Assembly: GCA_050735975.1 (NCBI GenBank)
Contig: JBOHVS010000376.1
Location: 2,986 to 66,985 of the forward strand
From: Candidatus Binatia bacterium
GTDB lineage: Bacteria; Desulfobacterota; Binatia; UBA9968
Length of the DNA stretch: 64,000 nt
Direction of reading: 5' to 3'
Made by a program: the position numbers and the translations under genes. The notes beneath the pieces are model-generated. The model had not been told where the DNA came from. It ran no database searches and saw nothing but the letters and a program-made list of their open reading frames with translations. This document shows, piece after piece, positions 24,817-61,110 of the stretch (positions are counted from its first letter, which is position 1; each line of letters begins with the position of its first letter).

Positions 24817-24825
24817 GAATGAGTT

Positions 24826-27271: not shown

Positions 27272-27422
27272 ACAAAAACCCATCCAGGCGGCCCTGAGCA
27301 GAGTCGAAGGGTTGCGAGCTTTTCTTAAAGATCTCCGGTCTTGGTCCAAAACGCTTTCTTTGTTATGGTGCGACCTATCCATTTTACGATCAGTGCCGCG
27401 ACTTGACGTTTGGAGGTGAACC

Positions 27423-28238
27423 ATGGTCGAGATGAAAACCGTTTTAGAAAAAATCGATGAGGACTCCGGAGTCGCGTGGTTGACGTTAAACCGACCCGAA
27501 AGGAAGAACGCCATGAGCCGGAATCTGATTGCGGAGACGATCAGCATTCTCAAGGAACTGCGCGACAACGATAGAATTCGCTGCATCGTAACGACCGGAG
27601 CGGGAAATTCCTACTCTTCCGGGCTGGATCTCTATGACCTGAGGGAAAGTTGGAAGCGCAAGAGGAGATGGGACGAAGGGGGTTCGACTTATGAGATCGT
27701 CAAGTTGCTGCGCGCGTGCCCGCAAGTCACGGTTGCGGCCGTCAACGGTTGGTGTCTGGGCGGTGGCATGGCTCTGTTAAATGGGCACGACCTTGCGGTG
27801 GCCGCCGAATCGGCGATGTTCGGCATGCCGGAGATCATTCGGGGCAGCTATGGCGCTGTTGCAACGTCTACACTTTTCCACACAGGCATACCCTTCAAGA
27901 AAGCTTTCTACATCCAGTTAACAGGGAGAAATCTCACAGCAACTGAGGCGGAAAGAATCGGACTCGTTTCCCAGGTAGTGGCTGATAATCAACTGCTGCC
28001 GTACGTCGAGGCGCTGGCGAAAGAAATCGGCTCTCGAAACGGCGCGACTTTGGAGAGCGCAAAAATCGCGGCCTATATGGAAAAGGATATGGATTTTGAC
28101 ACCGCGCTTCGCACCGACGATCTCGTTTCGCACCGAATGAGGTATTACACCAATCCGTTAAGTGACGTGGAAGGCTACCTCCATTCTCAGAAGGGCGGCG
28201 GGAGCACGCGATATGTGAAACCGGAGGATAGAAAGTAA
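27423..28238 (+). CDS. Enoyl-CoA hydratase/isomerase family protein
   Basis: LTLNRPERKNAM, NGWCLGGGMALL, FGMPEIIRGSYG. SD GGAGGTGA upstream. Confidence 0.85.
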   Translation: MVEMKTVLEKIDEDSGVAWLTLNRPERKNAMSRNLIAETISILKELRDNDRIRCIVTTGAGNSYSSGLDLYDLRESWKRKRRWDEGGSTYEIVKLLRACPQVTVAAVNGWCLGGGMALLNGHDLAVAAESAMFGMPEIIRGSYGAVATSTLFHTGIPFKKAFYIQLTGRNLTATEAERIGLVSQVVADNQLLPYVEALAKEIGSRNGATLESAKIAAYMEKDMDFDTALRTDDLVSHRMRYYTNPLSDVEGYLHSQKGGGSTRYVKPEDRK

Positions 28239-28293: not shown

Positions 28294-30690
28294 ATGGACA
28301 AAGCGCCTCAATTTCTTAGCAGTTATAGAGCGCTGGACTTAACCGGCCTCGCTGGGCAGCTTTGCGGCCGTGTGCTGGCTGATCTTGGAATGGAAGTTAT
28401 AAAGGTCGAGGGGCCCGGCGGCGATCCAGTTAGAAGATTGGAACCTGTCGCGGAGTTAGGCGGGACTTCCTTAAGCCTTCCATTCGCTCATTTGAACGCC
28501 AACAAAACGAGCATGGTGCTCGATCTCCAAAATGCCCAAGGGCGAGAGACGTTCTTGCGTCTGGCCGAAAATGCTGACGTGGTTCTTGAGAGCTTTTCGC
28601 CGGGATTCATGGATTCGCTGGGCTTCGGGTACAAGCAGCTCGCGGAGGTTAATCCGCGGCTGGTAATGGCCTCGATCACCGGCTTTGGTCAAACCGGTCC
28701 AGGCAAGAACTACCCTTGCGCTGATATCGTCGCGGCGGCGATGGGTGGGCTGATGTATATTTCAGGGGATCCATCATTGCCTCCGTGCAAGGCGCCGGAA
28801 ACACAAGCTTACTACTTCGGCAGCCTCTTCGCCGCGATAGGGGTATTGGCCGCTCTGTACCATCGCGAGCAGTGCGGTCGCGGGGACTACGTCGACGTGT
28901 CCATGCAGGAGGCCCTGGCAACTCACGAGCATCTCATACGCCTCTACGCAAACGAAGGTCAAATCGTCAGACGGCAAGGGAGCCAGCACGGGCAGGTGGC
29001 CCCGGCGAGAATTTTTCCCTGTAAGGATGGGTATGTCTATCTATATGTTACGCGCCAGCATTGGAAGCTTTTTCTTGAGCTTTGGACTGGTCATCCGGTA
29101 GAGATGGACGGCGCGGAATGGGCGAACAATTTATACCGGCGGGCGCGCGTCGAGCAGATCAATCAACTGGTCTCGGAATTTACGAAGCAATACACGAAGG
29201 CAGAACTGACGGAGCTGTGCCAGGCGCGCGGTCTTCCGTGCACTCCCGTTAACAGGCCGGGTGATTTTATCCGCGACGAACAGGTTCGGACGCGCGGCTT
29301 TGTCTCGGAGATTCAATATCCTTTCGGCAAAGTCGAGCAGGTGGCGGCGCCGTTTCTAATAAACGGCAGCCGGCCGGAAGTGAGGCCGGCGCCCGCTCTC
29401 GGCGATTGCCAGCACGCGGCGCAGAATCGAGATCGCAATTCAGCGGAGCAAATGACAGCCAACGCTGCGAATGGTGGCGCGGGTGCGAGCCCTCCGTTGA
29501 AGGGAATGAGAATCGTCAGCTTCGATCATGTTCTAGCGGGTCCTTACGGCACGACGATTCTGGCCGAGCTAGGCGCCGACGTGATCAAGGTCGAATCCCG
29601 TAAGGGCGGATTGGACCCGTTCAGATTTTTCGGCACGGGCGAGGATCCGAATCTCTCTCCTCGGTTTCTCGAATTCAATCGCAACAAGCGATCGATTACA
29701 GTGAATCTCAAGACTGCCGATGGGCCAAAGATCATTCTAGACTTGGTGCGCCATTCGGACGCCGTGCTCGATAATTACAGCGTGGACGTTATGTCTAAAT
29801 TTGGGCTGGGCTACGACGATCTTTGCCGCGCCAGACCGGATATCATCAATTTGAGAATGCCCGGACTCGGCTGCACGGGTCCGAAGCGATACTACTCTAC
29901 TGTCGGCGTGAACATCACCGCATTCACTGGTCTGACCTATCTCTGGAATCATCCGGGCAAAACCAATCCACCGATCGGGTCGCAAACGGTCTTTCCCGAC
30001 TACGTCTCGGGGGTGCTGGCAGCGATCTTGGTCGTGGCGGGCGTTTTATACCGCAAACGGGCGCAAAAGGGCGCTTTCATCGACATGTCTCAAGGCGAGG
30101 TGACGGCCTATATGATCGGCGCGAGCCTGATGGAGGCAAAGGCTTTGGGCCGCGAGCCCGAGCCCATGGGCAACCATTCCGCGTTTGCGGCGCCGCATCA
30201 CTGCTACCCTTGTAAGGGAGAGGAACGTTGGTGCGTCATCGCTGTCGAGAATGAGGAACAGTGGCGCTCGCTGGCTGAAACTCTCGGCCAAGACGTCGAG
30301 CGCGATCAACGATTCAAAACCGTGGAGCAGCGGCTTCGGCATCGGGACGAGCTGGACGCTCTGATCGCGCAATGGACCCGAGAGAGGGACTGCTATGAAG
30401 TCATGCGCGCTCTGCAGAGAGTCGGCGTTCCCTGCGGTGTCGTGCAGAACGGCGCCGATTTGACCGCCGATCCTCATCTTAGAGAACGAGGTTTCATCAT
30501 CGGAGTCGAAAATGCGAGGCTGGGACGAGTGGTGTTGCCGAGTTTTCCGCTACGATTCGCCAACGCGAAATTAGATCCGAGATGGGAATTCCCGGAGCTC
30601 GGGCGTGACAATGAAGCGGTGCTGCGCGACGTCCTCGGCTACACCGGTGAAAAGATCGAGGGGCTTGCCACCAGGAATGTGTTGGCATAG
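28294..30690 (+). CDS. Family III (CaiB/BaiF) CoA-transferase, tandem A-B two-module fusion
   Basis: 798 aa. Module A is about residues 1-375 and module B about 400-798, joined by a low-complexity linker (...NRDRNSAEQMTANAANGGAGASPP...). Each module has the N-terminal Rossmann-like (L/V)xDLxxxxAG / GxxVIKVE signature. Confidence 0.9.
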   Translation: MDKAPQFLSSYRALDLTGLAGQLCGRVLADLGMEVIKVEGPGGDPVRRLEPVAELGGTSLSLPFAHLNANKTSMVLDLQNAQGRETFLRLAENADVVLESFSPGFMDSLGFGYKQLAEVNPRLVMASITGFGQTGPGKNYPCADIVAAAMGGLMYISGDPSLPPCKAPETQAYYFGSLFAAIGVLAALYHREQCGRGDYVDVSMQEALATHEHLIRLYANEGQIVRRQGSQHGQVAPARIFPCKDGYVYLYVTRQHWKLFLELWTGHPVEMDGAEWANNLYRRARVEQINQLVSEFTKQYTKAELTELCQARGLPCTPVNRPGDFIRDEQVRTRGFVSEIQYPFGKVEQVAAPFLINGSRPEVRPAPALGDCQHAAQNRDRNSAEQMTANAANGGAGASPPLKGMRIVSFDHVLAGPYGTTILAELGADVIKVESRKGGLDPFRFFGTGEDPNLSPRFLEFNRNKRSITVNLKTADGPKIILDLVRHSDAVLDNYSVDVMSKFGLGYDDLCRARPDIINLRMPGLGCTGPKRYYSTVGVNITAFTGLTYLWNHPGKTNPPIGSQTVFPDYVSGVLAAILVVAGVLYRKRAQKGAFIDMSQGEVTAYMIGASLMEAKALGREPEPMGNHSAFAAPHHCYPCKGEERWCVIAVENEEQWRSLAETLGQDVERDQRFKTVEQRLRHRDELDALIAQWTRERDCYEVMRALQRVGVPCGVVQNGADLTADPHLRERGFIIGVENARLGRVVLPSFPLRFANAKLDPRWEFPELGRDNEAVLRDVLGYTGEKIEGLATRNVLA

Positions 30691-30734: not shown

Positions 30735-31775
30735 ATGAAAATGTTCATTTTAGCGGTCTTTTGTCTATGGGCCGCCAGTTCATCGGCTGCGGCGCAGGGG
30801 AAACCATCAAAGGTAGCCGAGCTCGGCGCCTACTCGGGAGCGGATCGCCAAAAAATTCTTGAGGCAGGAGCCAAGAAGGAAGGCAAGGTGGTTTGGTATA
30901 CGACCCTGATCGCTTACAAGGAAATCGTAAAGCTTTTTGAGGGGAAGTATCCGGGAATAAAGGTTGAGGCCTACCGATCTAACTCTACCGATCTCCTTAA
31001 AAGGTTCCTGGCGGAAGCGCAGGCGGGACGCCATTTAGTGGACGTTATAGAAACCACTCCTCCTTCCCTAATGGCCGGACGGGACGCCAAACTTCTTGCG
31101 CCGTATTTCTCGCCCCATTTGAAATTATATCCGGATGACTCCAAAGAAGAAGCCGGTAAGGGAACGGTTTTTTGGACAACGGACCGTGAATCCTTGATCG
31201 GTCTGGGCTACAACAAAAACCACATCAAGACGGCGGATGTTCCGAAAAATTTTGCCGATCTCTTGAAGCCCGAATACAAAGGAAAGTTCGCCGTCAGCGG
31301 GGACGCCACGGGAGCCCGAATGATCGGCGCTATGTTGCGCGCCAAAGGCGAAGAATTCGTTAAACGGCTAAAGGATCTGGATGTCAAAATGCACATGGTA
31401 TCAGGAGGGGCGCTTCAAGAGTTGCTCGCCGCGGGCGAAATGGCGATGTCGTTTTCCATTTTTCGTAATCACGTACAGGTCACTCAGGGCAAAGGTGGGC
31501 CGACCGAGTGGGTTCCCCTTGACCTGGTGGTGGCGAATGCGGGAGGCGCGGCTCTGCCGGCTCATACCAACAATCCCCATGCGTCGCTCCTGTTTATCGA
31601 TTTTCTCATCAGTCCGGAAGGACAAGATCTGCTGGCGGAAAAATTCAAGTACGCGAGTTCTATGAAACAATACCCATTCAAGCGCTGGTATCCGGAAAAG
31701 GGCCTGACGACGGACCAATATGAAAAGAACTTCAACAAATGGCAGAAGCTGCTGCGGCAAATTGCACGACGATGA
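30735..31775 (+). CDS. ABC transporter periplasmic substrate-binding protein (family 1, Fe3+/thiamine/polyamine-like)
   Basis: Signal peptide MKMFILAVFCLWAASSSAAAQ. SBP_bac_1-like pattern (VVWYTT..., AGRHLVDVIE). Confidence 0.85.
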   Translation: MKMFILAVFCLWAASSSAAAQGKPSKVAELGAYSGADRQKILEAGAKKEGKVVWYTTLIAYKEIVKLFEGKYPGIKVEAYRSNSTDLLKRFLAEAQAGRHLVDVIETTPPSLMAGRDAKLLAPYFSPHLKLYPDDSKEEAGKGTVFWTTDRESLIGLGYNKNHIKTADVPKNFADLLKPEYKGKFAVSGDATGARMIGAMLRAKGEEFVKRLKDLDVKMHMVSGGALQELLAAGEMAMSFSIFRNHVQVTQGKGGPTEWVPLDLVVANAGGAALPAHTNNPHASLLFIDFLISPEGQDLLAEKFKYASSMKQYPFKRWYPEKGLTTDQYEKNFNKWQKLLRQIARR

Positions 31776-31804
31776 TACAGCCGTCCATCGGTTAAACGTG
31801 AATC

Positions 31805-33541
31805 ATGAGCCGGGCGCTGGAGATCAGTCCGCGAGTTTGGGCCCGGAGTTCGGGGCGAGCGTCTAACCCCAACTTCTGGCTGTTTATCGTAACAGCGGCT
31901 GTTCTCGTTTATCTTGTCGTTCCACCGTTTTTCTTTATCCTCTCGGCAAGCTTTACAGCCGAGACCGGCACCAACGTCGGCGAGCTGACCTTAAAACATT
32001 ACGCCAGCATTGTAGGTTCGGTGGATGATTTCGGTGTCCTGCTCTGGAATTCGTTTGTTTTTTCCGTTGGCAGCGCGCTTGGAGCGTTGTTCTTTGGCAC
32101 TCTTCTGGCGTGGCTGGCGGAGCGCACCAATGCTCCCTTTCAAAGTGTCGCCTACGTTTCCGCGTTCGTCTCCTTCGGAATCCCGGGGATTGTTAAAGTC
32201 ATAGGTTGGATACTTTTGTTGGGGCCGGAAGCGGGTCTGATCAACGTTATCGCCGAAGACCTCACTGGCATCTCGCCGGTATTTAATCTTTTTTCCATGC
32301 CGGGAATGATCATGGTGGAGGCCTTCGTCTGGACGCCGGTGGTTTTCTTGCTTATGGCAACTCCGTTCCGATCCATGGATCCGACTCTGGAGGAAGCGGC
32401 GCTGACGGCGGGAAGCAATAACTGGCAGGTCTTCCGCAGGGTGACTCTTCCCCTGGCCCTGCCGAGTGTGCTCGCGGTATTGATCTTAACCTTCGTCCGT
32501 TCGCTGGAGGCCTTCGAGATTCCAGCTCTAATAGGGCTGCCGGCAGGCGTCGAAGTTCTGACTACGAAGATTTATCTCCAGATTCGAACCGGCTTTCTGC
32601 CGAGATACGGCGAAGCGAGCGCCTATTCCGTCCTATTGATCGCGCTCGTCGGCGTGGTTTTGCTTTTCTATCATCGCGTAACTTCGCAGGGCTATAAGTT
32701 TTCAACCGTTACCGGAAAAGGCTTCCGACCCCGGCGAATCGATCTGCGTTTTTGGCGCTGGCTGGGTGGAGCGATTCTGCTGATCCTTCCTCTACTGCAG
32801 ATTCTTCCACTGGTGGCTTTGACGTGGTCGTCCTTTCTGCCATACGTCCAGCCGCCGTCCCAAAAGGCCCTGGCGGCTCTCTCATTGGACAACTACTCGT
32901 CGGCTTTCAGCGACGGCGCAATCATCTGGGCGGTGTTGAACAGTCTTTTTGTCAGCGTGACATCCGCGACTGCGGTGGTGGCGGTAACCTTCGTCGCCGC
33001 TTGGGTCGTGGTGCGGACGAATATCTCAAAGCGCTGGACGCTAGACCATTTGGCGACCGTCCCTTTAGTGTTTCCGGGACTCGTTATGGGTGTGGCTATT
33101 TTGAAGATGTATCTAACTTTGCCGGTGCCCATATACGGAACTCTATGGATTATCTTCTTCGCATTTTTGGTTCGATATCTTCCTTACGGCATTCGCTTTA
33201 GTTATGCGGGACTGCTGAGCATTCATCGAGAACTCGAGGAGAGTTCCGCAACGTGCGGCGGCAACTGGAGGCAAACGGTCAGAAAAATTCTCTTTCCGCT
33301 GATGCTGCCCACTCTGTTCGCCGGCTGGATCTACGTCTTTCTCATCACCATTCGAGAGCTGTCGGTGGCACTGCTGCTGTACAGTCCGGGCTCCCAAGTC
33401 GTAGCGGTTGTCATTTGGGAGCTTTGGGATAATGGAAGAATTGGCGAAGTGGCGGCGTTTAGCTTGGTCTTCACTCTCGGTACGGTGTTGCTCGCAGCTT
33501 TCTTCAAGCGACTCGCTCACCAACACAGCCTCAACGTCTAG
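31805..33541 (+). CDS. ABC transporter permease, duplicated BPD-type (FbpB/ThiP-like)
   Basis: 578 aa with about 12 TM segments and two EAA-like loops (MDPTLEEAALTAGSNNWQVFRRVTLP and HRELEESSATCGGNWRQTVRKILFP). Confidence 0.85.
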   Translation: MSRALEISPRVWARSSGRASNPNFWLFIVTAAVLVYLVVPPFFFILSASFTAETGTNVGELTLKHYASIVGSVDDFGVLLWNSFVFSVGSALGALFFGTLLAWLAERTNAPFQSVAYVSAFVSFGIPGIVKVIGWILLLGPEAGLINVIAEDLTGISPVFNLFSMPGMIMVEAFVWTPVVFLLMATPFRSMDPTLEEAALTAGSNNWQVFRRVTLPLALPSVLAVLILTFVRSLEAFEIPALIGLPAGVEVLTTKIYLQIRTGFLPRYGEASAYSVLLIALVGVVLLFYHRVTSQGYKFSTVTGKGFRPRRIDLRFWRWLGGAILLILPLLQILPLVALTWSSFLPYVQPPSQKALAALSLDNYSSAFSDGAIIWAVLNSLFVSVTSATAVVAVTFVAAWVVVRTNISKRWTLDHLATVPLVFPGLVMGVAILKMYLTLPVPIYGTLWIIFFAFLVRYLPYGIRFSYAGLLSIHRELEESSATCGGNWRQTVRKILFPLMLPTLFAGWIYVFLITIRELSVALLLYSPGSQVVAVVIWELWDNGRIGEVAAFSLVFTLGTVLLAAFFKRLAHQHSLNV

Positions 33542-33550
33542 CCCGAATTA

Positions 33551-33602
33551 TGTCCGGACATTTTTCAATCTGCAATTTACAGTTTGCATTTTGCAATGCA
33601 TG
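33551..33602. repeat. Family R4 (TGCAAA/TTGCA-rich)
   Basis: The reverse complement of 33551-33600 matches 47611-47660 at 46 of 50 positions (counted by hand). Confidence 0.85.
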
Positions 33603-33730
33603 AATAATACGACTTAGCGCCCACCGTTTTGCGTAGTCTTTCTTCTTCAGTCGATTGACAGGATACACCCCTTGGAGTAGACGTGGCTCAGCGAAGTCAT
33701 TGCGCCGAAAAACAACGCAAGGAGGTATCG

Positions 33731-34726
33731 ATGATGACGAAGATCGCCTCGGCTGTTCTCGCCGTTCTATTCTCCGGCTTTTTGAGCAACGGAGTTGCGG
33801 CCACCCTTGATCAAGCCAAAAAAGAAAGGACCGTAGTCCTTTACGGCGCAGGCAATGTTGAGCACTGGCAGAAGCTTAACACGGCCTTTCAAAAGAAGTA
33901 CCCGTTTCTCAAAGTCGAGATGTTTCGCGGCAATTGGGAGAAAGTGCGAAATCGCGTTATGACCGAGGGACGCGCGGGCAGTCATTTCGTTGATGTCCTG
34001 CAGATCGACGGCATCAACGGCTGGGTGCTCAAGGAGGAGGGTTATCTTCAGGCCCACAAGTCCGCCGAAACGGAAGCTTTCCCGGAAGCATTTCGTGATC
34101 CGTCGGGCATGCTTCCCTGTTGCCTTGACACGCTTACCAATGTCATCGGTTTCAACACTAGCCTTGTAAAAAAGAACGACGCGCCCAAGAGCTATCAAGA
34201 TCTCCTCAATCCCCGATGGAAAAACAAGCTTGGGATGGATGCCGACGAGGGCGAGTGGTTCGCGGGGCTGGTTACGGTATGGGGAAAAGAAAAAACCGTT
34301 GACTACTTCCGGACCTTGATGAAACAAAATCCGTCGTTGCGCCGGGGGCACACGCTGCTTGCGAATCTTACCGGCGCCGGTGAGTTTCCCGTCGCCGTGA
34401 ATTTGTTCGGTTACCGTGTTATGGAAATGAAGGCTCAAAGCGCAACCATTGACTTGATTAAAGCGGATCCACTCATGGTTCGGCCGGCGCATATGGCGCT
34501 GGCACGGCGAGCCCCCCATCCGAATGCCGGGCGACTTTATATTGATTTCGCTCTTTCCGTTGAAGGACAACAGATCATGGCGTCCTTAGGTCGGACCGTT
34601 GTCCGTCCGGGAGTGAAGCCCAAGTATCCTGAATTGACGGAAGGATTGAAGCTTTATCCTATCAAGCCCGAGATGGCCAAGAATTACGAGGAGCTTTCGA
34701 AACTGTATTACTCGATTGTGAAGTAG
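33731..34726 (+). CDS. ABC transporter periplasmic substrate-binding protein, paralogue of 30735..31775
   Basis: ATG at 33731 after GGAGG. Signal peptide MMTKIASAVLAVLFSGFLSNGVAA. AGSHFVDVLQ parallels AGRHLVDVIE in the first SBP. Confidence 0.85.
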   Translation: MMTKIASAVLAVLFSGFLSNGVAATLDQAKKERTVVLYGAGNVEHWQKLNTAFQKKYPFLKVEMFRGNWEKVRNRVMTEGRAGSHFVDVLQIDGINGWVLKEEGYLQAHKSAETEAFPEAFRDPSGMLPCCLDTLTNVIGFNTSLVKKNDAPKSYQDLLNPRWKNKLGMDADEGEWFAGLVTVWGKEKTVDYFRTLMKQNPSLRRGHTLLANLTGAGEFPVAVNLFGYRVMEMKAQSATIDLIKADPLMVRPAHMALARRAPHPNAGRLYIDFALSVEGQQIMASLGRTVVRPGVKPKYPELTEGLKLYPIKPEMAKNYEELSKLYYSIVK

Positions 34727-34757
34727 ACAGCGACGATATGAAGAGGAGGAAACGACG

Positions 34758-35579
34758 ATGGCTGAGTATCAAACTCTTTTAGTCAACAAGAATGACGGCG
34801 TGACGACGGTCACATTGAATCGCCCGGAGAAGCGGAACGCTATGAGCCCGCAGCTCCATCGAGAGATGTATGATCTGCTCAACGATCTCCGTTACGACAA
34901 GGACACGAGAGTCATCGTGATCACGGGGGCGGGAGAAAGCTTCTGCGCCGGACAGGATTTGAAGCAATATTTTCTCGAAATGGATTCTCAACCGGAACGA
35001 GTGCGGGACGAGGTGAGGGAAAAATCCCGCCAGTGGCGAAATGAGATCCTACGCAAAATGCCGCAGCCGGTGATTGCGAAGATCAACGGTTGGGTGTTTG
35101 GCGGCGGGTTCACCGTGGTAACCGGTTGCGACATCGCCATCGCGGCGGACGACGTGCAGTTCGGACTTTCGGAAGTCAATTTCGGCCATTTCCCCGGGGG
35201 TGAAGTGACCATCGTATTGACGGAGCATCTGCAGCCCAAGCACGGGCTCTACTACGCGCTCACGGGGAAAACCATGACCGCGAAAGAAGCCGAGCGCATC
35301 GGTTTGATCACCAAGGCTGTGCCGCGCGCCGATTTAGATAAAGAGGTCATGGAGATTGCGAATAACCTAAAAGAAAAGGCGCCGTCGGCGCTAAACGCCG
35401 TCAAAGAAGCGTGGTACTACACTTTCTACTCCAACCCGGAAGTCGCCTATGAAATATCCGGGTTGATTTCCGACAAGGCCAAACAAGCGATCGGCGGCCG
35501 GCCCGGATTACAACAATTCGCTCGCAAAGAATACCGGCCAGGACTCGGTTCGTATAAATTTGACGAAAAGAAGGAATAG
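34758..35579 (+). CDS. Crotonase, hydroxycinnamoyl-CoA hydratase/lyase (HCHL)-like subfamily
   Basis: VTLNRPEKRNAMSPQLHREM, GAGESFCAGQDLKQYF, NGWVFGGGF, GLSEVNFGHFPGG, C-terminal ...QQFARKEYRPGLGSYKF, which resembles the HCHL tail. Confidence 0.85.
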   Translation: MAEYQTLLVNKNDGVTTVTLNRPEKRNAMSPQLHREMYDLLNDLRYDKDTRVIVITGAGESFCAGQDLKQYFLEMDSQPERVRDEVREKSRQWRNEILRKMPQPVIAKINGWVFGGGFTVVTGCDIAIAADDVQFGLSEVNFGHFPGGEVTIVLTEHLQPKHGLYYALTGKTMTAKEAERIGLITKAVPRADLDKEVMEIANNLKEKAPSALNAVKEAWYYTFYSNPEVAYEISGLISDKAKQAIGGRPGLQQFARKEYRPGLGSYKFDEKKE

Positions 35580-35657
35580 ATCACGGGATTTTATTTCTTG
35601 CACTCCAGAAGTGTGAAAACATTTCATGTTGCCAACCGTAGTGACAAAAAACCTTTA

Positions 35658-35778
35658 TCGCGCCAAGACGCCAAGAACGCAAAGAAAATTCTTTTTTTCT
35701 TCGAACTTGGCGGCCTTTGCGCCTTTGCGCGGGACACTGAATCGGAAATCGCAAATCTAAAATCCAAAATTAAAAGTG
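35658..35778. repeat. Composite R6 + R5
   Basis: CGCCAAGACGCCAAG (35661-35675, identical to 13681-13695) ... TTGGCGGCCTTTGCGCCTTTGCGCG, then AATCTAAAATCCAAAAT. Confidence 0.8.
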
Positions 35779-35786
35779 GGGAAGTA

Positions 35787-36941
35787 ATGGATTTCCGATT
35801 GCCCGAAGAGCTGCAGATGCTGAAAGACACGGTCAGGAAGTTCGTCGACAACGAGCTGATTCCGATCGAGATGCACAGCCAGGAAGATAATGAGCTCAAG
35901 CCCGAGATCCGTGAGAGATTGGAAAAGAAGACTAAAGAGATGGGGTTGTGGATGTTCGATGTGCCGGAAGAGTATGGCGGCGCGGGGCTCGGCAGTCTGG
36001 CGCAAGTCTTGGTATGGGAAGAGATGTGCCGCACCATCGCCCTCCCGTCGCGCGGGCAGGGAATATTCGGACCGGAAGTGCGGCCGATTCTCTATGCGCT
36101 GAACGACGAACAAAAACAGCGCTTCTTCTATCCGATCCTTAGAGGCGAGAAGCATTTGTGTTTCATGCAGACCGAGCCCGATGCCGGCTCTGACCCGGGG
36201 TCGATGAAGACGCGCGCCGTGCGCCAAGGAGATCAGTACGTCGTCAACGGCACCAAGCGCTTCATTACCGGAGCGGACAAAGCGGATTTTGGCCAGCTTA
36301 TGGCCGTGACCGACCCGAGTAAAGGCTCGCATGGGGGCATCTCTTGCTTCATGGTCGATATGAAATCGCCGGGGCTCAAGATCACTGCCAGATATAAGAC
36401 CATGATGGGCGAAGAGCCGTGCGAGATCGTTTTTGACGATCTCAAAGTGCCGGCCCAGAATCTCGTGGGCGGAGAAGGCGAGGGCTTCAAGCTGGCGCAA
36501 AAGTGGCTCGGTATCGGTCGCCTGAAACATGGCGCGCGCGCTTTGGGCGTCTCGGAGCGCTGCATCGAAATGGGCTCGCGCTACGCGAAGCAGCGCGTCA
36601 CGTTCGGCAAGCCGCTTTCCGAACGGCAGGGGATCACTTTTAAACTTGCCGATTCTTACGTTGAACTGCACGCGGCGCGTCTGATGGTCTACCAGGCTGC
36701 GTGGAAGAACGACCAAAGAGAAGACATCCGCACCGAAGCCTACATGGCCAAGATGTTCGCCGACGAAATGTCCTTCCGCGTCGTCGATCGCGTGCTGCAG
36801 ATTCACGGCGGCATCGGTCTGACGCTGGATCTGCCGCTAGCAAAGTGGTTTGTCGATCAGCGCAGCCGGATGATTACCGAAGGCGCGTCCGAAGTTATGC
36901 GCATGGTCATCGCCCGGGAAGTTTTAAAGAAATACAGTTAA
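35787..36941 (+). CDS. Acyl-CoA dehydrogenase
   Basis: ATG at 35787 gives MDFRLPEELQMLKDTVRKFVD, parallel to the 42133 paralogue. The upstream 63 codons of ORF 35598 are repeat sequence. QTEPDAGSDPGS, ITEGASEVMR. Confidence 0.9.
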   Translation: MDFRLPEELQMLKDTVRKFVDNELIPIEMHSQEDNELKPEIRERLEKKTKEMGLWMFDVPEEYGGAGLGSLAQVLVWEEMCRTIALPSRGQGIFGPEVRPILYALNDEQKQRFFYPILRGEKHLCFMQTEPDAGSDPGSMKTRAVRQGDQYVVNGTKRFITGADKADFGQLMAVTDPSKGSHGGISCFMVDMKSPGLKITARYKTMMGEEPCEIVFDDLKVPAQNLVGGEGEGFKLAQKWLGIGRLKHGARALGVSERCIEMGSRYAKQRVTFGKPLSERQGITFKLADSYVELHAARLMVYQAAWKNDQREDIRTEAYMAKMFADEMSFRVVDRVLQIHGGIGLTLDLPLAKWFVDQRSRMITEGASEVMRMVIAREVLKKYS

Positions 36942-41148: not shown

Positions 41149-41973
41149 ATGGCAGTGACGAAAGAATACAAGACGGTCAAAGTTGACAAAGAAGACGGGA
41201 TCACGTGGGTCATTTTGAACCGGCCGGAGAAGAGAAACGCGATGAACCCGCAGCTTCACTACGACATGCTCGAAGCGCTGACGGAGCTGGAGGTCGACAA
41301 GGAAACGCAAGTGGTGGTAATTACGGGCGCCGGGCCGAGCTGGTGCGCAGGGCAGGATCTGCGCGAGTACTTTCGCGGCACCGACGATAACGCGATCGAA
41401 AGACGTAAGGCGAGCTGGGCCTCTCAGGAGTGGCGCTGGCGCAGGCTGTTCACCTTCCCAAAACCCACCATCGCCATGGTCAACGGGTTTTGCTTCGGCG
41501 GGGCTTTCACGCCGCTCATCGCCTGTGATTTTGCCATCGCCGCCGAGGACGCGATCTTTGGTTTGAGCGAAATCAACTGGGGTATCTTTCCGGGCGGATT
41601 GGTGAGCCGGGTTTTGGCGGATGCTATGAGTTATCGTGACGCCATGTACTACATCATGACGGGAGATCCGTTCGACGGCAAGAAGGCCGCGGAGTTGAAG
41701 CTCGTGAATTACGCTGTACCGAAGGAAAAGCTGCGTGAAGAAACAGTCAAGCTGGCGAAGAAGCTGATGGAGAAGAATCCGCAGGTGCTTAGAGCGGCGA
41801 AGGAAGTTTACAAGTACTGCCGCAATATGGATTACAACCAGGCCGAGGATTACATGTCGGCGAAGGGAACCGCTTTGCGGCTGAGCGATCCGGAAAAGGG
41901 ACGCGAGACCGGTATGAAGCAGTTCCTTGACGAAAAGACCTACCGGCCGGGATTGGGCACCTACAAGCGATAA
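41149..41973 (+). CDS. Hydroxycinnamoyl-CoA (feruloyl-CoA) hydratase/lyase-like crotonase (HCHL subfamily)
   Basis: Colinear with Pseudomonas HCHL as I recall it: KTVKV..EDGI.WVILNRPEKRNAM, KPTIAMVNG.CFGG, FGLSEINWGI.PG, NP.VLRAAK, and the diagnostic tail GMKQFLDEKTYRPGLGTYKR. SD AAGGAGGG upstream. Confidence 0.9.
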   Translation: MAVTKEYKTVKVDKEDGITWVILNRPEKRNAMNPQLHYDMLEALTELEVDKETQVVVITGAGPSWCAGQDLREYFRGTDDNAIERRKASWASQEWRWRRLFTFPKPTIAMVNGFCFGGAFTPLIACDFAIAAEDAIFGLSEINWGIFPGGLVSRVLADAMSYRDAMYYIMTGDPFDGKKAAELKLVNYAVPKEKLREETVKLAKKLMEKNPQVLRAAKEVYKYCRNMDYNQAEDYMSAKGTALRLSDPEKGRETGMKQFLDEKTYRPGLGTYKR

Positions 41974-42117: not shown

Positions 42118-42132
42118 TAATGGTTGATCAAC

Positions 42133-43299
42133 ATGGATTTCAACTTACCCGAAGAGCTTCAGGTACTGAAGGAAACGGTTCGAAAGTTCGTCGATCGAGA
42201 GCTGATCCCTCTGGAGCGGGAGTGCCGCCCGGAGGGCGAGGAGATGCCGGAAAAGTTCATTAAGCCGCTGCAGGAAAAAGCGAAAGCCATCGGATTGTGG
42301 TTGCTTGATGTGCCGCAGGAATATGGCGGGGCCGGTCTCGATCTGCTCAGCCGGTGCGTGATCATGGAAGAGGTGGCGCGGACGGTCGCGATTCCTTTTC
42401 GCTACGCGCCGATCTTTGGCCCTGAAGTGAGGCCGGTGCTGTTTCATTGCAACGAGGAGCAGAAAGAGCGGTTCCTTTTCCCGGTCATGCGGGGAGAGAA
42501 GCGTATGTGCTTCGCGCAGACCGAGCCGGATGCAGGCAGCGACCCCGCGGGGATGAAAACTCGCGCCGTTAGAGACGGCGATCATTATGTTGTCAATGGC
42601 ACAAAGCGCTTTATCACCGGTGCAAAAAACGCTGATTACGCGCAAGTGATCGCGGTCACCGATCCCGAGAAACGGGCGCGCGGCGGCGTTACTTGCTTCA
42701 TTGTCGACATGAAGGCTCCGGGAGTTACGCTTGAGCGGCTTTGGCCGACCATGATGGGCGATACGCCGGGTCAAATTCTATTCGAGAACGTACGAGTGCC
42801 TGCGGCCAACATTATCGGCGGCGAAGGCCAGGGCTTCTCCATCGCCCAGAAATGGATTCAAGAGGGACGCATACGCGGGCACGGCGCGCGGCCGGCCGGC
42901 ATCGCGCAGCGGGCGCTCGATATGATGATCGAGTACTCCAAGGTGCGGACGACGTTTGGCCGTCCGCTTTCGGATCGCCAGGCGATTCAGTTCATGATCG
43001 CCGACTCGGCGATGGAACTGCACGCCTGCCGATTGATGGTTTACGAATGCGCCTGGCGTCATGACCGGGAGGAAGACGTTCGCCAGCTTTCCTATATGAC
43101 CAAGATCATGTGCGCCGAAATGGCGAGCCGAGTCGTGGATCGCTCGATCCAAGTTCACGGCGGTGTCGGGCTCACTCGCGACCTGCCTCTCGAATGGTGG
43201 TACCGCCAGGTGCGGAGCATCCGCATCACCGAAGGGACGCCGGAAGTCCTACGTTGGCGACTAGCAGAACATCTCATCAAAAGTCATAAACCATTATGA
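42133..43299 (+). CDS. Acyl-CoA dehydrogenase, paralogue of 35787..36941
   Basis: MDFNLPEELQVLKETVRKFVD, QTEPDAGSDPAG, NGTKRFITGA, ITEGTPEVLR. Confidence 0.9.
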   Translation: MDFNLPEELQVLKETVRKFVDRELIPLERECRPEGEEMPEKFIKPLQEKAKAIGLWLLDVPQEYGGAGLDLLSRCVIMEEVARTVAIPFRYAPIFGPEVRPVLFHCNEEQKERFLFPVMRGEKRMCFAQTEPDAGSDPAGMKTRAVRDGDHYVVNGTKRFITGAKNADYAQVIAVTDPEKRARGGVTCFIVDMKAPGVTLERLWPTMMGDTPGQILFENVRVPAANIIGGEGQGFSIAQKWIQEGRIRGHGARPAGIAQRALDMMIEYSKVRTTFGRPLSDRQAIQFMIADSAMELHACRLMVYECAWRHDREEDVRQLSYMTKIMCAEMASRVVDRSIQVHGGVGLTRDLPLEWWYRQVRSIRITEGTPEVLRWRLAEHLIKSHKPL

Positions 43300-44549
43300 C
43301 GGCGATCGCGGATGCAAGTTCCCTAGCCCGCGTTGCGGGAGAGGGTCAGGGTGAGGGTGCAACCGCTCTCCTGCCCGGCTTCCGTGTCCTGGATTTGAGT
43401 TCTTCGATGGGGGCATTTTGCGGCAAGCTGCTGCGCGACCTGGGAATGGACGTTATCAAGGTCGAACAGCCGGGAGGCGACGCCGCCCGCTCCGAGCCGC
43501 CCTTTGCCAAAGGCCATACTCACCGCGAAGGAAGCCTTCGTTTCGCGTACCTCAACGCGGGCAAGCGCAGCATCACGCTCGACATCACGAAGGAGACCGG
43601 CCGGAAGCTCTTGTTCGACTTGGTGGCGCGCTCTGATATTGTGCTGGAAACCTTCGAACCGGGCTATCTGGCCGCGCACCATATCGGCTACGAGTCCATG
43701 ATAGCACGCCAGGAAAAAATAATTTTGGTTTCCCTCACCGGTTTCGGCCAGGACGGACCCTACGCTCATTTTAAGACACCGGATATCGTTGGCACGGCTA
43801 TGGGCGGTTTGCTCTATATCAGCGGCGATCCAAAGCTCACGCCATGCAATCCACCGGAGACGCAATCGTATTATTACGCGAGTCTTTTCGCGGCTTACGG
43901 CGTGATGCTCGCGCTCTGGCAGCGGCAGACGCGCGGCATCGGCGCGTTCATCGATGCGTCGATTCAAGCGAGCATGGCGCTGCACGAGCACGTCGCTTTC
44001 AACTATTCGGCGGAGGGGCGGGTGATGAAGCGCGCCGGCAGCCAGCACCAGCACAATGCGCCGGCCAATCTTTTTAAGTGCAAGAACGGTTACATCGCGC
44101 TCTTCGTCACGCAAAATCACTGGCCGCTTCTGCTGAAGGTTTGGGAAGATCATGCGCCGGAGCTCGACGATCCAAAGTGGATCAACAGCAACTTGCGGCG
44201 CGCTAACGCCGACTATATCAACGCGCAAGTGACTTCTTTCACTTCCCGGTTTCTCAAAGAAGACCTCGCCGAACTGATGCAAAAGCACGGCATACCGGGT
44301 CTGCCGGTCAACTCGCCGTCAGACTTTATGAAGGACCCGCACATACGGGCGCGGGGGTTTTTTAGCAAAGTCACACACCCGGTGCTTGGTCCCTATGATC
44401 AGCCGGGCAGCCCATTCATGGTGGACGGCAAACGCTCGGCGCCTTTGCCACCGCCGCTTTTGGGGCAGCACAACGAGGAAGTGTTTTGCGGCGAACTCGG
44501 TCTCACCCGGCGAGACCTGGAAGTGTTGGTCGCGGACGGCGTGATCTGA
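43296..44549 (+). CDS. Family III CoA-transferase, A-type subunit
   Basis: ATGA overlap with the ACAD. Colinear with module A of the 798-aa fusion (for example GGLLYISGDPKLTPCNPPETQSYYYASLFAAYGVMLAL versus GGLMYISGDPSLPPCKAPETQAYYFGSLFAAIGVLAAL). Confidence 0.9.
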   Translation: MTAIADASSLARVAGEGQGEGATALLPGFRVLDLSSSMGAFCGKLLRDLGMDVIKVEQPGGDAARSEPPFAKGHTHREGSLRFAYLNAGKRSITLDITKETGRKLLFDLVARSDIVLETFEPGYLAAHHIGYESMIARQEKIILVSLTGFGQDGPYAHFKTPDIVGTAMGGLLYISGDPKLTPCNPPETQSYYYASLFAAYGVMLALWQRQTRGIGAFIDASIQASMALHEHVAFNYSAEGRVMKRAGSQHQHNAPANLFKCKNGYIALFVTQNHWPLLLKVWEDHAPELDDPKWINSNLRRANADYINAQVTSFTSRFLKEDLAELMQKHGIPGLPVNSPSDFMKDPHIRARGFFSKVTHPVLGPYDQPGSPFMVDGKRSAPLPPPLLGQHNEEVFCGELGLTRRDLEVLVADGVI

Positions 44550-44550
44550 A

Positions 44551-44641
44551 TGCGAATGTCAAATTGCAAAGTGCAAAACGGAGATTGTGAAATTTCGGAC
44601 AAAGATTTGCGTTTTGCAATTTGCATTCTGCAATTTGCATT
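44551..44641. repeat. Family R4 palindromic copy
   Basis: AAATTGCAAAGTGCAAAACG ... CGTTTTGCAATTTGCATTCTGCAATTTGCA. Lies between the two CoA-transferase genes and contains the spurious ATG 44587. Confidence 0.8.
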
Positions 44642-44655
44642 GGACCGGGGAATCC

Positions 44656-45870
44656 GTGCATAGCGCGAATCGTATACTCGAGGGCGTTCGCATCCTGACT
44701 TTCACGACCGGGTACGCCGGTCCTTACGCCGGCAGGTTGTTGTCCGGGTACGGCGCCGAAGTCATTAAAATAGAGTCGCGCAAAGGCGGACTCGATACTT
44801 TCCGCCATTACGGACAGCACAAAGATATCGACGCGGCGCCCAGGTTCATCGAATGCAATCTCGGGGTTCGCTCCTTTTCCGTGAACCTTAAACACCCTAT
44901 CGGGGTTCGGCTCATCAGGGAGTTGGCCGGCAAATCGGATGCGATCTTGCAGAATTTTCGGCCCAGGGTGTTGGATAAACTGGGTTTGGGCGACGACGAA
45001 CTCAGAAAGGTCAACCCCAAACTGGTAATTTTGAAATTGCCGGGCTTCGGTTCCGAAGGACCCAAAAGCGGCTATGGGACCTGGGGATTCAATCTCACGG
45101 CCTTTTCCGGCATGACCTACCTCTGGAATCATCCTGAGCAGGATCGACCCATCGGCAGTCAAGGAGTTTATCCCGACCATCTGGGCTTCATTATGGGGCC
45201 GACCATCATGGTCGCCGCGCTGCTGCGCAGCCGGCTCACAGGGAAGGGAGTCTCCGTCGATCTGGCGCAGATTGAAGGCACCGCCTACACGCTGGGGTCG
45301 ACGTACTTGGATGCGGCCGTGAACAGCCGTGATCCACAGCCGAAAGGCAACCGCGACCCGGTTGCCGCGCCCCACGGCTGCTACCCCTGCGAGGGGGAGG
45401 ATCGTTGGTGCGTCATCTCAGTTCGGACTGAAGAAGAATGGCGTAGCTTTTGTCAAGTCATCGGCCAGACGGAATTGGCGAGCGATGCTCGTTTCGCGGA
45501 CCTTCAGTCCCGGATAAAGCATCTCCGTGAGCTTGACGTTATTGTTCAGCGATGGACGGAAGCGAGAAGCGCGGAAGAGGTGATGGCCAAGCTCCAATCC
45601 ATGGGCGTCCCCGCCGGTGTTGTGCAAACCGGCGCGGATCTCCTCAAGGACCCGCAGTTGCGACACAGGAACTACTTTGCCGCATTTTCGGACTCCCTTA
45701 TCGGTCCTTTCGAAATTCCTCGCGGCGGATTTTTGTTCAAAGGGATGACTGAAGAACCGCTGCGGCTGCCTAACAGGTTCGGCTCCGACAACGAGCAAAT
45801 TCTGGGAGATATTCTAGGTTACGACAAAGCATCCATTGCCAAGTGGCAAACCGAGGAAATTTTGACTTAG
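44656..45870 (+). CDS. Family III CoA-transferase, B-type subunit
   Basis: Colinear with module B of the fusion (IESRKGGLD, NLTAFSGMTYLWNHP, IGSQGVYPDH). GTG at 44656 is preferred because ATG 44587 lies inside a palindromic repeat. The start is uncertain. Confidence 0.85.
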   Translation: MHSANRILEGVRILTFTTGYAGPYAGRLLSGYGAEVIKIESRKGGLDTFRHYGQHKDIDAAPRFIECNLGVRSFSVNLKHPIGVRLIRELAGKSDAILQNFRPRVLDKLGLGDDELRKVNPKLVILKLPGFGSEGPKSGYGTWGFNLTAFSGMTYLWNHPEQDRPIGSQGVYPDHLGFIMGPTIMVAALLRSRLTGKGVSVDLAQIEGTAYTLGSTYLDAAVNSRDPQPKGNRDPVAAPHGCYPCEGEDRWCVISVRTEEEWRSFCQVIGQTELASDARFADLQSRIKHLRELDVIVQRWTEARSAEEVMAKLQSMGVPAGVVQTGADLLKDPQLRHRNYFAAFSDSLIGPFEIPRGGFLFKGMTEEPLRLPNRFGSDNEQILGDILGYDKASIAKWQTEEILT

Positions 45871-45966: not shown

Positions 45967-46503
45967 GTGATTAACCCACCTGAAAGCATCGAAACGCGAA
46001 GGTTGCGGCTGCGGAAACCGGTGCTAGAGGACGCCGAAGTCATTTTTCGGCAGTATGCCCAGGATCATGAGGTGACGAAGTATCTCACCTGGTATCCAAA
46101 TCGATCGGTAGAGCAGACTCGAGAATTTGTTCGTTTGTGCATCGCCGCTTGGGAGGCGGAGAAATCTTTCCAGTGGGCGATCGTTCAAAAGAAACGGCAT
46201 CAGCTTATCGGGATGATTGGCTTCAGAGTCGACGGGCACAAATGGGAATTGGGTTACGTGTTAACTCGGGCGTATTGGGGTAGAGGATACATGACCGAGG
46301 CCGTCAAAGCTCTCGTAGACTGGGCGTTAAAGCAGTCGGAGGTTTATCGTATCTGGGCGGTTTGCGACGTGGAGAACCCCGCTTCGGCTCGCGTGATGGA
46401 TAAGGCAGGTATGACGAGAGAAGGTATTCTGCGTCGCTGGTCCATGCACCCGAACATTAGTGACGAACCGAGAGACTCTTACTGCTATTCCATAACGAAG
46501 TAG
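45967..46503 (+). CDS. GNAT family N-acetyltransferase (RimJ/RimL-like)
   Basis: TRRLRLRKPVLEDAEVIF, IGMIGF, RAYWGRGYMTEAVKALVDWA, NPASARVMDKAGMTREG. Confidence 0.85.
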   Translation: MINPPESIETRRLRLRKPVLEDAEVIFRQYAQDHEVTKYLTWYPNRSVEQTREFVRLCIAAWEAEKSFQWAIVQKKRHQLIGMIGFRVDGHKWELGYVLTRAYWGRGYMTEAVKALVDWALKQSEVYRIWAVCDVENPASARVMDKAGMTREGILRRWSMHPNISDEPRDSYCYSITK

Positions 46504-46555: not shown

Positions 46556-47560
46556 CTAGACTTTCGTCTTCTCCCCTATGCGCGAAAAAACCTTTTTGGC
46601 GTTGCCTTCGGTGATCTTCCGCTTGTCCTCGTCGCTGAGCCAGTCGATAGACTGGAATAGTGGTACGATGTCTTCGAAGTTCCGCCCGGTCTTAGGATCG
46701 ATCGCGTTGACCGCGCCGAACATCTCCGTGGCGAACAAGACATTGTCGACGCCGAGCCGTCTGATCAACAGTTCCATCGATTGTTTATCGTAGATCGCCA
46801 TATCCCAGTAAACTCTCCGGGCCGCCTCTTCAAACGGCTCGTAGCCCTCCTTGACGTGCATGCCGCGGTGGCGGTTCCACTGGTAGGGGATTGCTCCGCC
46901 GCCGTGCGGGATGATGATCTTTAACTTGGGAAAATCTTTAAAAACTCGGGACTTCAGCAGTTCCACAGCGCCAGAATGATGCTGCGCGATGTAATAGGAG
47001 TTGGTCAAATGCATTGCCGGATGAAGCGAGGCGCTGGCATGGATCGTGCCTGGCACGTCCAACTCCACCATCTTATCCCACAGTGGATACCACCATTCGC
47101 TTCCCAGCGAGGGGCTCAGTGGCTCGCGACCGCCGGCTACGTCGGGATTTACGTTACAGCCGACGAATCCGAGTTCTCTTACGCAGCGCTCAAGCTCGTC
47201 GACCCACTCCTTGGGGTTGACGCCTGGCGATTGCGGCAATTGACAGACCGGCGAAATCTTGTCCGGCCAGAGCCTGGCAACGCGCGCGATCAAATCGTTG
47301 CACGCTTCGCTCCAGTAACGACTAACAAGCGGGGAGCCGAAATGATGCCCCATCGCCGAGGCTTGCGGCGAAAAGAGCAATCTATCGATTCCCGATTCTT
47401 TCATGCGCTTGAACTGTCCCTGCATGGACTGTGCAAGCTGCTCGTCGCTGATCTGCAGTTTTGCCCGGACGGGCTTGGCAAGATCGGTGATCTGCCGGCC
47501 CCGGTACGCCGGCAGTTCCAAAGGGGCGGTCGTGTAGTGGGTATGAGCATCAATAATCAT
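46556..47560 (-). CDS. Amidohydrolase_2 family protein (COG2159)
   Basis: MIIDAHTHY, IIPHGGGAIPYQ, C-terminal EDKRKITEGNAKKVF. Confidence 0.85.
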   Translation of the reverse strand: MIIDAHTHYTTAPLELPAYRGRQITDLAKPVRAKLQISDEQLAQSMQGQFKRMKESGIDRLLFSPQASAMGHHFGSPLVSRYWSEACNDLIARVARLWPDKISPVCQLPQSPGVNPKEWVDELERCVRELGFVGCNVNPDVAGGREPLSPSLGSEWWYPLWDKMVELDVPGTIHASASLHPAMHLTNSYYIAQHHSGAVELLKSRVFKDFPKLKIIIPHGGGAIPYQWNRHRGMHVKEGYEPFEEAARRVYWDMAIYDKQSMELLIRRLGVDNVLFATEMFGAVNAIDPKTGRNFEDIVPLFQSIDWLSDEDKRKITEGNAKKVFSRIGEKTKV

Positions 47561-47610: not shown

Positions 47611-47739
47611 TGGATTGCAAAATGCAAAGTGTAAATTGCAAATTGAAAAATATCCGGACAGGGAACTGTCCCTCGTTTTCGACCTGTTAAGGTGTTATTC
47701 ATTTTGACTTTTGCACTTTACAATTTGAAATTTGCAATG
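47611..47739. repeat. Family R4 palindromic copy
   Basis: TGGATTGCAAAATGCAAAGTGTAAATTGCAAATTGAAAAATATCCGGACA ... TTTTGCACTTTACAATTTGAAATTTGCAAT. Confidence 0.85.
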
Positions 47740-59515: not shown

Positions 59516-60175
59516 ATGAGTAAAGCGAAGTTGGTATCTTGGTTTTTCCTTGCGCTGTCGCTTTCGGCCTGTACCGCCTATCGAGTGGCGGGGCAGGTCC
59601 AGTCGGGGAGACAGGCTCTTATGATCAGTAACTCCGAAGCCGCTCTGGCTTATTTCCAAGAAGCTGTCAAAACCGACCCCGATTACATATATCAATTCTC
59701 GTTATACCGGCAGGGAGTTTGGACCTACCTCGGCCGCGCTCAATACAATTTAGGTAAGTTGCAGGAGGCCCGCCGATCTTTTGAGCGAGCGCTTTCAATT
59801 TATTCCGACGATTACTTGGCCAGGGTCTATTTAGGTTTGACCCTGGCGCGCATGGGCGATCAATCGCAAGCTCGCAAACAAATCGAGGCCGGACTCAAGG
59901 GTCTTTATGACTGGCTGGAGTATATCAACGCCGCCCGGCCATTCGAGGCGTACTGGGACCCCAGGCGTGAGATTCGCTCCGCAATCGACCAAAGTCTCGC
60001 GATGATTTCAAGCAGGGACATCGATTGGCCGGCGCTGATCGCCAACGGCGAGTGGATCGGCCAGAGGATGGAGCAAGAGATCGATTACGTCAGGAGAGAG
60101 GAACAGCGAGAGTTGTTTGAACGCGATCGGTTTGGCAGGCCTGAATTCGGACTTGGCATAGGCATCGGGTTTTGA
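59516..60175 (+). CDS. TPR-repeat lipoprotein
   Basis: Lipobox LALSLSAC. TPR-like helices (ALAYFQEAVKTDPDY, LQEARRSFERALSIYSDDYLARVYLGLTL). Confidence 0.7.
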   Translation: MSKAKLVSWFFLALSLSACTAYRVAGQVQSGRQALMISNSEAALAYFQEAVKTDPDYIYQFSLYRQGVWTYLGRAQYNLGKLQEARRSFERALSIYSDDYLARVYLGLTLARMGDQSQARKQIEAGLKGLYDWLEYINAARPFEAYWDPRREIRSAIDQSLAMISSRDIDWPALIANGEWIGQRMEQEIDYVRREEQRELFERDRFGRPEFGLGIGIGF

Positions 60176-61065: not shown

Positions 61066-61110
61066 GGGGCTCTTATAACCAATCAAACAGCAATAGTAAA
61101 GACCTGACCC
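60195..61110 (-). mobile_element. Putative 916-bp element bounded by a 25-bp imperfect inverted repeat around the Y1 transposase gene
   Basis: 60195-60219 GGGTCAGGTCTTTATTTTTGCTGTT versus the reverse complement of 61086-61110 (AACAGCAATAGTAAAGACCTGACCC): 23/25 matching, with a 14-bp perfect core. Confidence 0.5.

Follow-up and report, generated by a model that had tools for sequence, protein, structure and literature searches.

Side-by-side aspartate-less and aspartate-bearing family III CoA-transferase genes in a Candidatus Binatia contig as probable subunits of one BbsEF-type enzyme

When two paralogous coenzyme A (CoA) transferase genes lie next to each other and only one of them encodes the aspartate expected at the active site, are their products two enzymes or the two halves of one? 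The question is raised by a 64,000-nucleotide stretch of DNA, hereafter called the window, from a Candidatus Binatia bacterium (assembly GCA_050735975.1, contig JBOHVS010000376.1, positions 2,986 to 66,985 of the forward strand). Gene A (window positions 43296..44549, + strand, a 417-amino-acid open reading frame, ORF) and gene B (44656..45870, + strand, 404 amino acids with a GTG start) are paralogous neighbors on the same strand with 106 bp between them. The 3' end of a third gene (28294..30690, + strand, 798 amino acids), in which an A-type and a B-type module are fused, sits 12.6 kb upstream of A. The original prediction held that the fused and split versions are colinear and that A and B therefore work as an obligate heterodimer. 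All three products matched the Pfam family PF02515 (CoA_transf_3, CaiB/BaiF) far above its cut-off of 23.3 bits, with full-length scores of 292 bits for A and 297 bits for B and a score of 641 bits in two stretches for the fusion, and a family profile scan of all window ORFs found these three as the only family III genes present. From the sequence comparisons described below, A and B probably make up one heteromeric family III CoA-transferase of the BbsEF type, with one active site per pair. This reading is based on the kinship of the fused and split forms, the existence of fusions in both module orders, the adjacency of such genes in other genomes, and clades that hold the two BbsEF chains and exclude the homodimeric enzymes.

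The fused gene contains two complete PF02515 modules, an A-type module (residues 1 to ~383) and a B-type module (residues ~396-798), joined by a poorly conserved, disordered linker (residues ~384-395, nt 29443-29478). In BLASTP comparisons, A aligned with fusion residues 4-374 at 45% identity (E 2e-118) and B with residues 402-798 at 43% identity (E 2e-119), whereas the crossed pairs (A with the C-terminal half, B with the N-terminal half) reached just 26-28% and A and B were 25% identical to each other. The proposed colinearity of the split genes with the two modules was thus confirmed. Chance similarity of the split and fused copies was ruled out by E-values near 1e-118, and it is unlikely that the fusion was recently duplicated in tandem and then split, as the copies are only 43-46% identical and each stands in its own conserved context. 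The structure of the 798-residue fusion was predicted with AlphaFold2 from an input alignment of 67 fused homologues, with a mean predicted local distance difference test score (pLDDT) of 84 and a predicted template modeling score (pTM) of 0.90; residues 384-395 had pLDDT values below 50. A pTM of this size in a chain of two modules suggests that their placement relative to each other is predicted with confidence, as would be expected of an intramolecular pseudo-heterodimer. A Foldseek search with the model returned 9fn0_B and 9fn0_A, the two chains of the solved BbsEF enzyme, as best matches. Each module of the model superposed on family III chains with template modeling (TM) scores of 0.76-0.90, scores that apply to each module by itself and would not show any interlocking of the two.

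A, B, and both fusion halves were aligned with MAFFT to Escherichia coli K-12 Frc, YfdE, and CaiB, human SUGCT, and the two BbsEF chains. At the column of Asp169 of Frc and CaiB, the established catalytic nucleophile, a tyrosine is found in A (Y192; codon TAT at 43869..43871, + strand), in the N-terminal module of the fusion (Y173; nt 28810-28812), and in 9fn0 chain A. An aspartate occupies the same column in B (D174; codon GAC at 45175..45177, + strand), in the C-terminal module of the fusion (D569; nt 29998-30000), in 9fn0 chain B, and in all homodimeric references. D174, which aligns with both D169 of Frc and D178 of 9fn0_B, is the predicted nucleophile of B. The motifs first used to describe this difference, PETQSYYYASLF in A and VYPDHLGFIMG in B, are present as quoted, and the tyrosine-aspartate asymmetry of both the split and the fused versions was borne out by the alignment. 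The second active-site position considered, Asn96 of Frc, follows the same division: its equivalent is Asn in 89% of B modules, B itself included, and mostly Ser or Thr in A modules, with Thr119 in A itself. Mean column conservation is nonetheless similar in the two groups (0.48 for A modules and 0.51 for B modules), and A modules have conserved positions of their own, such as an Arg and a Gly at the equivalents of Frc 241 and 266. Since active-site residues have been lost and conservation is similar to that of the B modules, the A-module pattern reads as the signature of a maintained non-catalytic subunit and not of a decaying gene. A would accordingly be classed as a family III member by fold and sequence that is not a predicted catalyst, a putative non-catalytic partner to B as the putative catalytic subunit.

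Sequence searches of the PDB placed the two genes on the two different chains of one enzyme. The best match was 9fn0_A for A (E 2.5e-51) and 9fn0_B for B (E 8.8e-55), and in each case the opposite 9fn0 chain scored far lower. Both chains are annotated as benzylsuccinate CoA-transferase subunits. The title of a further PDB entry, 9fol (released in December 2025), names a D178-CoA adduct; when residues are counted along the HMMER alignment, D178 is the chain-B aspartate that aligns with D174 of B, and hence the trapped covalent intermediate of the closest characterized enzyme sits on the B-like subunit. It had been proposed that an aspartate-less partner subunit was previously undescribed. This did not hold, because the BbsE-like chain of 9fn0 carries the same tyrosine and the adduct of 9fol is on D178 of the other chain: as the sequences and PDB titles show, the known BbsEF kind already has an aspartate-less partner. 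In the searchable library, no text was found that deals with family III subunits lacking the aspartate or with fused enzymes of this family.

The relationships of the modules were examined with neighbor-joining trees on corrected p-distances, the first of 296 modules and the second of 410. In the first tree, A, the N-terminal module of the fusion, and 9fn0 chain A fell in one clade of 144 tips, and Frc, YfdE, CaiB, and SUGCT grouped by themselves. A and the N-terminal fusion module shared a clade of 10 tips, B and the C-terminal module one of five, and a single fused protein, P0241, was the nearest relative of both A (49%) and B (48%). These small shared clades and the common nearest relative indicate that split and fused forms are interleaved and that the histories of A and B are congruent. 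The second tree added all family III genes from a background set of 80 unrelated genome loci, which had been collected with generic family III peptide patterns and which hold 30-36% relatives from many phyla, with no close Binatia genomes among them. Three groups were obtained. The A group has 167 tips, 156 of which lack Asp; in the B group, 153 of the 156 tips are partner modules with Asp; and the third group, of 72 tips, comprises 67 solitary genes, with Frc, YfdE, CaiB, and SUGCT among its members. The reference sequences were partitioned correctly in 221 of 243 bootstraps for the A group, 240 of 243 for the B group, and 140 of 243 for the homodimer group. A falls with the BbsE lineage and B with the BbsF lineage, both apart from the homodimeric enzymes, and the outcome that would have spoken against a heteromer, clustering of each module with ordinary homodimeric enzymes, was not seen.

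The same background loci were used to examine gene adjacency. A same-strand family III neighbor within 1 kb was found for 13 of the 16 split Asp-less genes, and this neighbor was always Asp-bearing; two of the three exceptions lie at or near a sequence end, and the third has its partner 1.8 kb away. Only four of the 71 Asp-bearing genes that do not partner an Asp-less gene have such a neighbor (Fisher's exact p = 5e-6 on the raw table). The split pairs occur in both gene orders, and one of the six fused genes in the set has the B-A order. Hosts of the pairs include Dehalococcoidia, other Chloroflexota, Acidobacteriota, Lachnospiraceae, Oscillospiraceae, Stellaceae, and a cultured Paenibacillus.

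Homologues were sampled at two depths. Close homologues of A (at least 79% identity), which are mostly metagenomic with a few labeled Candidatus Binatia, have Tyr at the aspartate column in 118 of 120 cases, His in one, and Phe in one. Homologues of the fusion with 63-78% identity, from Binatia, 'Deltaproteobacteria', and Acidoferrales metagenome-assembled genomes (MAGs), have Tyr (112/120) or Phe (8/120) in the N-terminal module and Asp in the C-terminal module in all 120; their linkers are 27 to 70 residues long and are not conserved. A phmmer search with A against 1.84 billion cluster representatives gave 45,635 hits at E values of at most 1e-3, of which the best 150 were analyzed. Two-module proteins of about 800 amino acids account for 140 of these 150. 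Two near-complete modules were recognized in 138, in A-B order in 129, in B-A order in two (P0255 and P0318), and in unclear order in seven, and the C/B-side module carries Asp in 134 of the 138. The A-side residue varies widely in these representatives (Tyr 37, Glu 16-18, Ser 11, Asp 10-11, His 8, Gln 8, Phe 7, with Ala, Trp, Arg, Gly, and others besides), and none of the eight A-type representatives with a single module has Asp. The reverse order, in which the module with Asp comes first, is seen in the fusions P0255, P0318, and L007:611-3307 and in split pairs at the loci L006, L008, and L028. The existence of both reverse-order fusions and split pairs implies that fusion arose in independent events. 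In a Dehalococcoidia MAG two fused Tyr/Asp CoA-transferase genes stand in tandem (L015:3466-5907 and 5968-8376).

If A and B form one enzyme, Asp174 of B would be the nucleophile that attacks the donor acyl-CoA. By the established family III mechanism, an acyl-aspartyl anhydride and then an aspartyl-CoA thioester would form on this residue, and the CoA would afterwards pass to the acceptor acid. A, with Tyr192 and without the Asn96 equivalent, would complete the dimer as a conserved partner without catalytic function, so that each A-B unit would have one working active site, and the 798-amino-acid gene 12.6 kb upstream would be a single-chain paralogue of the same design serving another pathway. 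Physical assembly, whether alpha2-beta2 or alpha-beta, one active site per unit, and function are all predicted here from sequence relationships.

Several points weigh against this interpretation. The identity of A and B to BbsE and BbsF is only 30-32% in the alignment, the trees were built by neighbor joining from simple distances, and the exact bipartition of A and non-A modules appeared in only 53 of 100 bootstraps of the first tree. The cluster representatives (50%-identity clusters) were picked by similarity to A and are hence a biased sample. Asp is kept in the A-clade module of 10 of the 129 A-B fused proteins; as some fused representatives among P0241-P0390 have Glu or Asp there, A-type modules may not always be dead and may be active in some lineages. 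Tyr192 and its context PETQSYYYASL are also highly conserved among close relatives, and the A pocket could have its own use. Such a use would be catalytic if the heteromer had two working sites, with that of A acting through Tyr192, a nearby carboxylate, or the Glu found in some relatives, or carrying out a second reaction. The strong conservation of Tyr192 and its flanks in close relatives, the Glu and Asp residues in A-clade modules of the fused representatives counted above, and the fact that A modules are on the whole no less conserved than B modules all favor this possibility. Across the A clade, however, many different residues occupy the position, which is unlike a catalytic residue; the equivalent of Asn96 has been lost as well, and the title of 9fol names an adduct on D178 only. 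The D169E, D169A, and D169S variants of Frc, for which structures exist, are reportedly inactive. Two working sites are on balance unlikely.

The remaining alternatives concern whether A and B belong together at all, and whether the likeness to BbsEF extends to function. A and B could be independent homodimers encoded side by side, B being an ordinary CoA-transferase and A an inactive binding protein or an enzyme of other chemistry. Most characterized family III enzymes (Frc, YfdE, CaiB, SUGCT) are indeed homodimeric, and the 106 bp between A and B leave no translational coupling; this spacer, however, measures just 27 bp in a related contig. The fusion of A-type with B-type modules in both orders, the almost constant presence of an Asp-bearing neighbor beside Asp-less genes, and the closeness of A and B to the two chains of a solved heteromer all argue against independence, and we regard it as highly unlikely. 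The idea that the two genes work as a heteromer was in this respect well supported by the fusions in both orders, the adjacency, and the separate clades that A and B share with the BbsEF chains. At the other extreme, the pair could be orthologous to BbsEF in the strict sense and activate (R)-benzylsuccinate, or a different fumarate adduct, during the anaerobic degradation of hydrocarbons. BbsEF supplies the best PDB matches, close homologues carry the JGI names 'BbsE subunit' and 'BbsF subunit', and an acyl-CoA dehydrogenase gene and an enoyl-CoA hydratase-family gene adjoin the pair, like bbsG and bbsH, which are part of bbs operons (PMC10818641). A and B nevertheless have neither a location in a bbs operon (bbsABCDGH) with bss genes nor the high identity to BbsEF that would mark a true orthologue. 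Domain scans of the window ORFs detected no glycyl-radical enzyme in the window and no BbsAB-type thiolase pair or BbsCD-type dehydrogenase beside the pair, the adjacent hydratase is of another type (E 2.5e-99 to 2j5i, described below), and BbsE and BbsF are more distant from A and B than many of the fused relatives. Orthology was therefore rejected on context and identity as exceedingly improbable, and with 30-32% identity and no bbs or bss context, the JGI names are best read as over-specific and not as a functional call. The single-site heteromer remains the preferred interpretation of A and B.

The limits of the two genes require some comment. Gene B lies in the frame of a + strand ORF at 44587-45870, and the GTG at 44656 is preceded by GGGGAA; the 404-amino-acid product from this start is identical (100%) to an entry of the public protein collection, P0391. 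Close homologues of A are 402 amino acids long and span only 94-96% of the 417-amino-acid ORF (the difference corresponds to window 43296-43340), while the ATG at 43296 overlaps the stop codon of the preceding acyl-CoA dehydrogenase gene (ATGA). Given the shorter homologues, the true start of A may be about 15 codons downstream of 43296; with the overlap at the ATG, either start is possible. The 106-bp spacer between A and B (44550..44655, + strand) contains TTGCAAT/TTGCATT repeats that could form a long imperfect hairpin (minimum free energy -31.7 kcal/mol, z = -2.4); the repeat is absent from the related contig with the 27-bp spacer. Short repeats of the TTGCAATTTGCATT type occur in the window in 10 copies (at most two mismatches), against 0.74 expected, all of them in intergenic spacers (33577-33597, 44563-44641, 47614-47648, and 47725-47738). 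With the related spacer being just 27 bp, the repeat of the A-B spacer looks like an inserted REP-like element, or alternatively a repeated operator. A 350-amino-acid ORF on the - strand (60085-61137) with an IS200-like Y1 transposase domain (PF01797, E 5.8e-10) could be a candidate REP-associated tyrosine transposase tied to these intergenic repeats.

Genes A and B are part of a cassette whose first gene (41149..41973, + strand) encodes an enoyl-CoA hydratase/lyase resembling p-hydroxycinnamoyl-CoA hydratase/lyase (HCHL). Its product scored 414 bits against the corresponding NCBI model NF006588 (cut-off 276 bits) and aligned end to end with the Pseudomonas HCHL of PDB entry 2j5i (E 2.5e-99). 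The second gene (42124..43299, + strand), which has a 4-nt overlap with A, encodes a short-chain-type acyl-CoA dehydrogenase with three ACAD Pfam domains; its best PDB relatives are of the short-chain acyl-CoA dehydrogenase type, and the caffeyl-CoA reductase CarC is among the top matches. Downstream of B, a GNAT acetyltransferase gene (45967..46503, + strand) travels with the cassette in related contigs. The order hydratase/lyase, dehydrogenase, A, B, followed by a binding-protein gene and the GNAT gene, is the same in the contigs L003, L084, and L086, in which A is 84-86% identical, and A and B are likewise adjacent in L003, L084, and L085. In L086 (7430-8211) the B gene was called as two fragments of 76 and 107 amino acids, which is probably an assembly frameshift error and not a real loss.

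The conserved cassette with its HCHL-like lyase and acyl-CoA dehydrogenase allows a tentative guess at a 3-arylpropionate-like acid as the substrate class of A and B. In such a pathway the A/B pair would activate the acid without ATP, the acyl-CoA dehydrogenase would then form the enoyl-CoA, and the HCHL-like lyase would cleave this into an aldehyde and acetyl-CoA. Acetyl-CoA or another pathway thioester could serve as CoA donor for the next round, analogous to the way in which BbsEF reuses succinyl-CoA as CoA donor in the toluene pathway (PMC10818641). When the HCHL-like protein is compared with 2j5i, Glu143 and Tyr75 are kept, Ser123 is replaced by Thr, and Tyr239 by Ser. All four are presumably catalytic or substrate-binding residues in HCHL, and we take Tyr239 to bind the 4-hydroxyl group of the substrate. 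Because of the two replacements the protein may not use 4-hydroxycinnamoyl-CoA, which makes the substrate guess weak.

The surroundings of the fused gene are different. Its neighborhood (window 18672-28238 and 30735-36941) is a separate beta-oxidation-like cluster with two acyl-CoA dehydrogenase genes, the second matching the C-terminal domain only, another dehydrogenase, a thiolase-like protein, four enoyl-CoA hydratases, a CoA ligase, an alpha/beta hydrolase, and ABC transporter parts, and it resembles side-chain or ring-degradation clusters for bulky acids. The window also contains three Amidohydro_2 genes (10728-11732, 16249-17328, and 46556-47560), members of a family that includes aromatic-acid decarboxylases and hydratases, as well as TTT, TRAP, and ABC uptake systems. 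Together, the Amidohydro_2 genes and the uptake systems point to the window being a large organic-acid catabolism island.

For annotation, these results mean that Asp-less family III genes should be taken neither as pseudogenes nor as lone enzymes, but as markers of an enzyme with one active site that is either fused or made of two subunits. Catabolic islands of uncultured Binatia, Chloroflexota, and other groups are rich in these enzymes, and the automatic names 'BbsE/BbsF subunit' and 'CaiB-like' wrongly suggest toluene or carnitine metabolism. The BbsEF-type design with one active site appears very common in uncultured bacteria, especially as single-chain fusions. No new mechanistic principle is opened, since an asymmetric BbsEF structure already exists. 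The HCHL-like cassette leads to the hypothesis of an ATP-independent shortening of aromatic side chains. A broader picture, which we put forward as speculative, is that BbsEF may be the only studied example found of a very large and mostly uncultured class that is far commoner fused than split, that the conserved Asp-less pocket (with Tyr192 in A) may be no relic and instead a specificity or regulatory site, and that the split pair may drive an ATP-free CoA loop feeding arylpropionate-like acids to the dehydrogenase and the HCHL-type lyase.

Insofar as known systems can be compared, Frc/YfdW, YfdE, CaiB, and human SUGCT share the Pfam family and the fold with A and B, and B has both the catalytic Asp and the Asn96 equivalent in common with them. 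They differ in having two identical subunits with two Asp sites, in being encoded by solitary genes, and in forming a clade separate from A and B, and A differs further from the Frc type in lacking both of these residues. Known HCHL routes usually begin with an ATP-dependent CoA ligase acting on cinnamate. The product of the first cassette gene is related to HCHL over its full length and keeps Glu143 and Tyr75, but here a CoA-transferase and an acyl-CoA dehydrogenase would precede the lyase, in which Tyr239 is Ser and Ser123 is Thr. The closest likeness is to BbsEF, with its two paralogous family III subunits, Tyr in the E-like chain and Asp (D178) in the F-like chain; by sequence and by tree, A belongs with chain A, and B with chain B, and the fusion model has TM scores of 0.90 and 0.76 to the 9fn0 chains. 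A and B differ from BbsEF in their 30-32% identity, in standing without bbs or bss genes around them, and in their HCHL-like lyase context, and based upon this low identity and other gene context their substrate is almost certainly different from that of BbsEF. The window also has a single-chain fused version, whereas the solved BbsEF is not single-chain. A further parallel, by analogy only, is offered by BbsCD, the heterotetrameric alcohol dehydrogenase of the toluene pathway, for which the title of von Horsten et al. 2021 (cited in PMC10818641) speaks of 'inactive pseudoenzyme subunits': there, too, a paralogous dead subunit appears to be combined with an active one, in the unrelated family of short-chain dehydrogenases.

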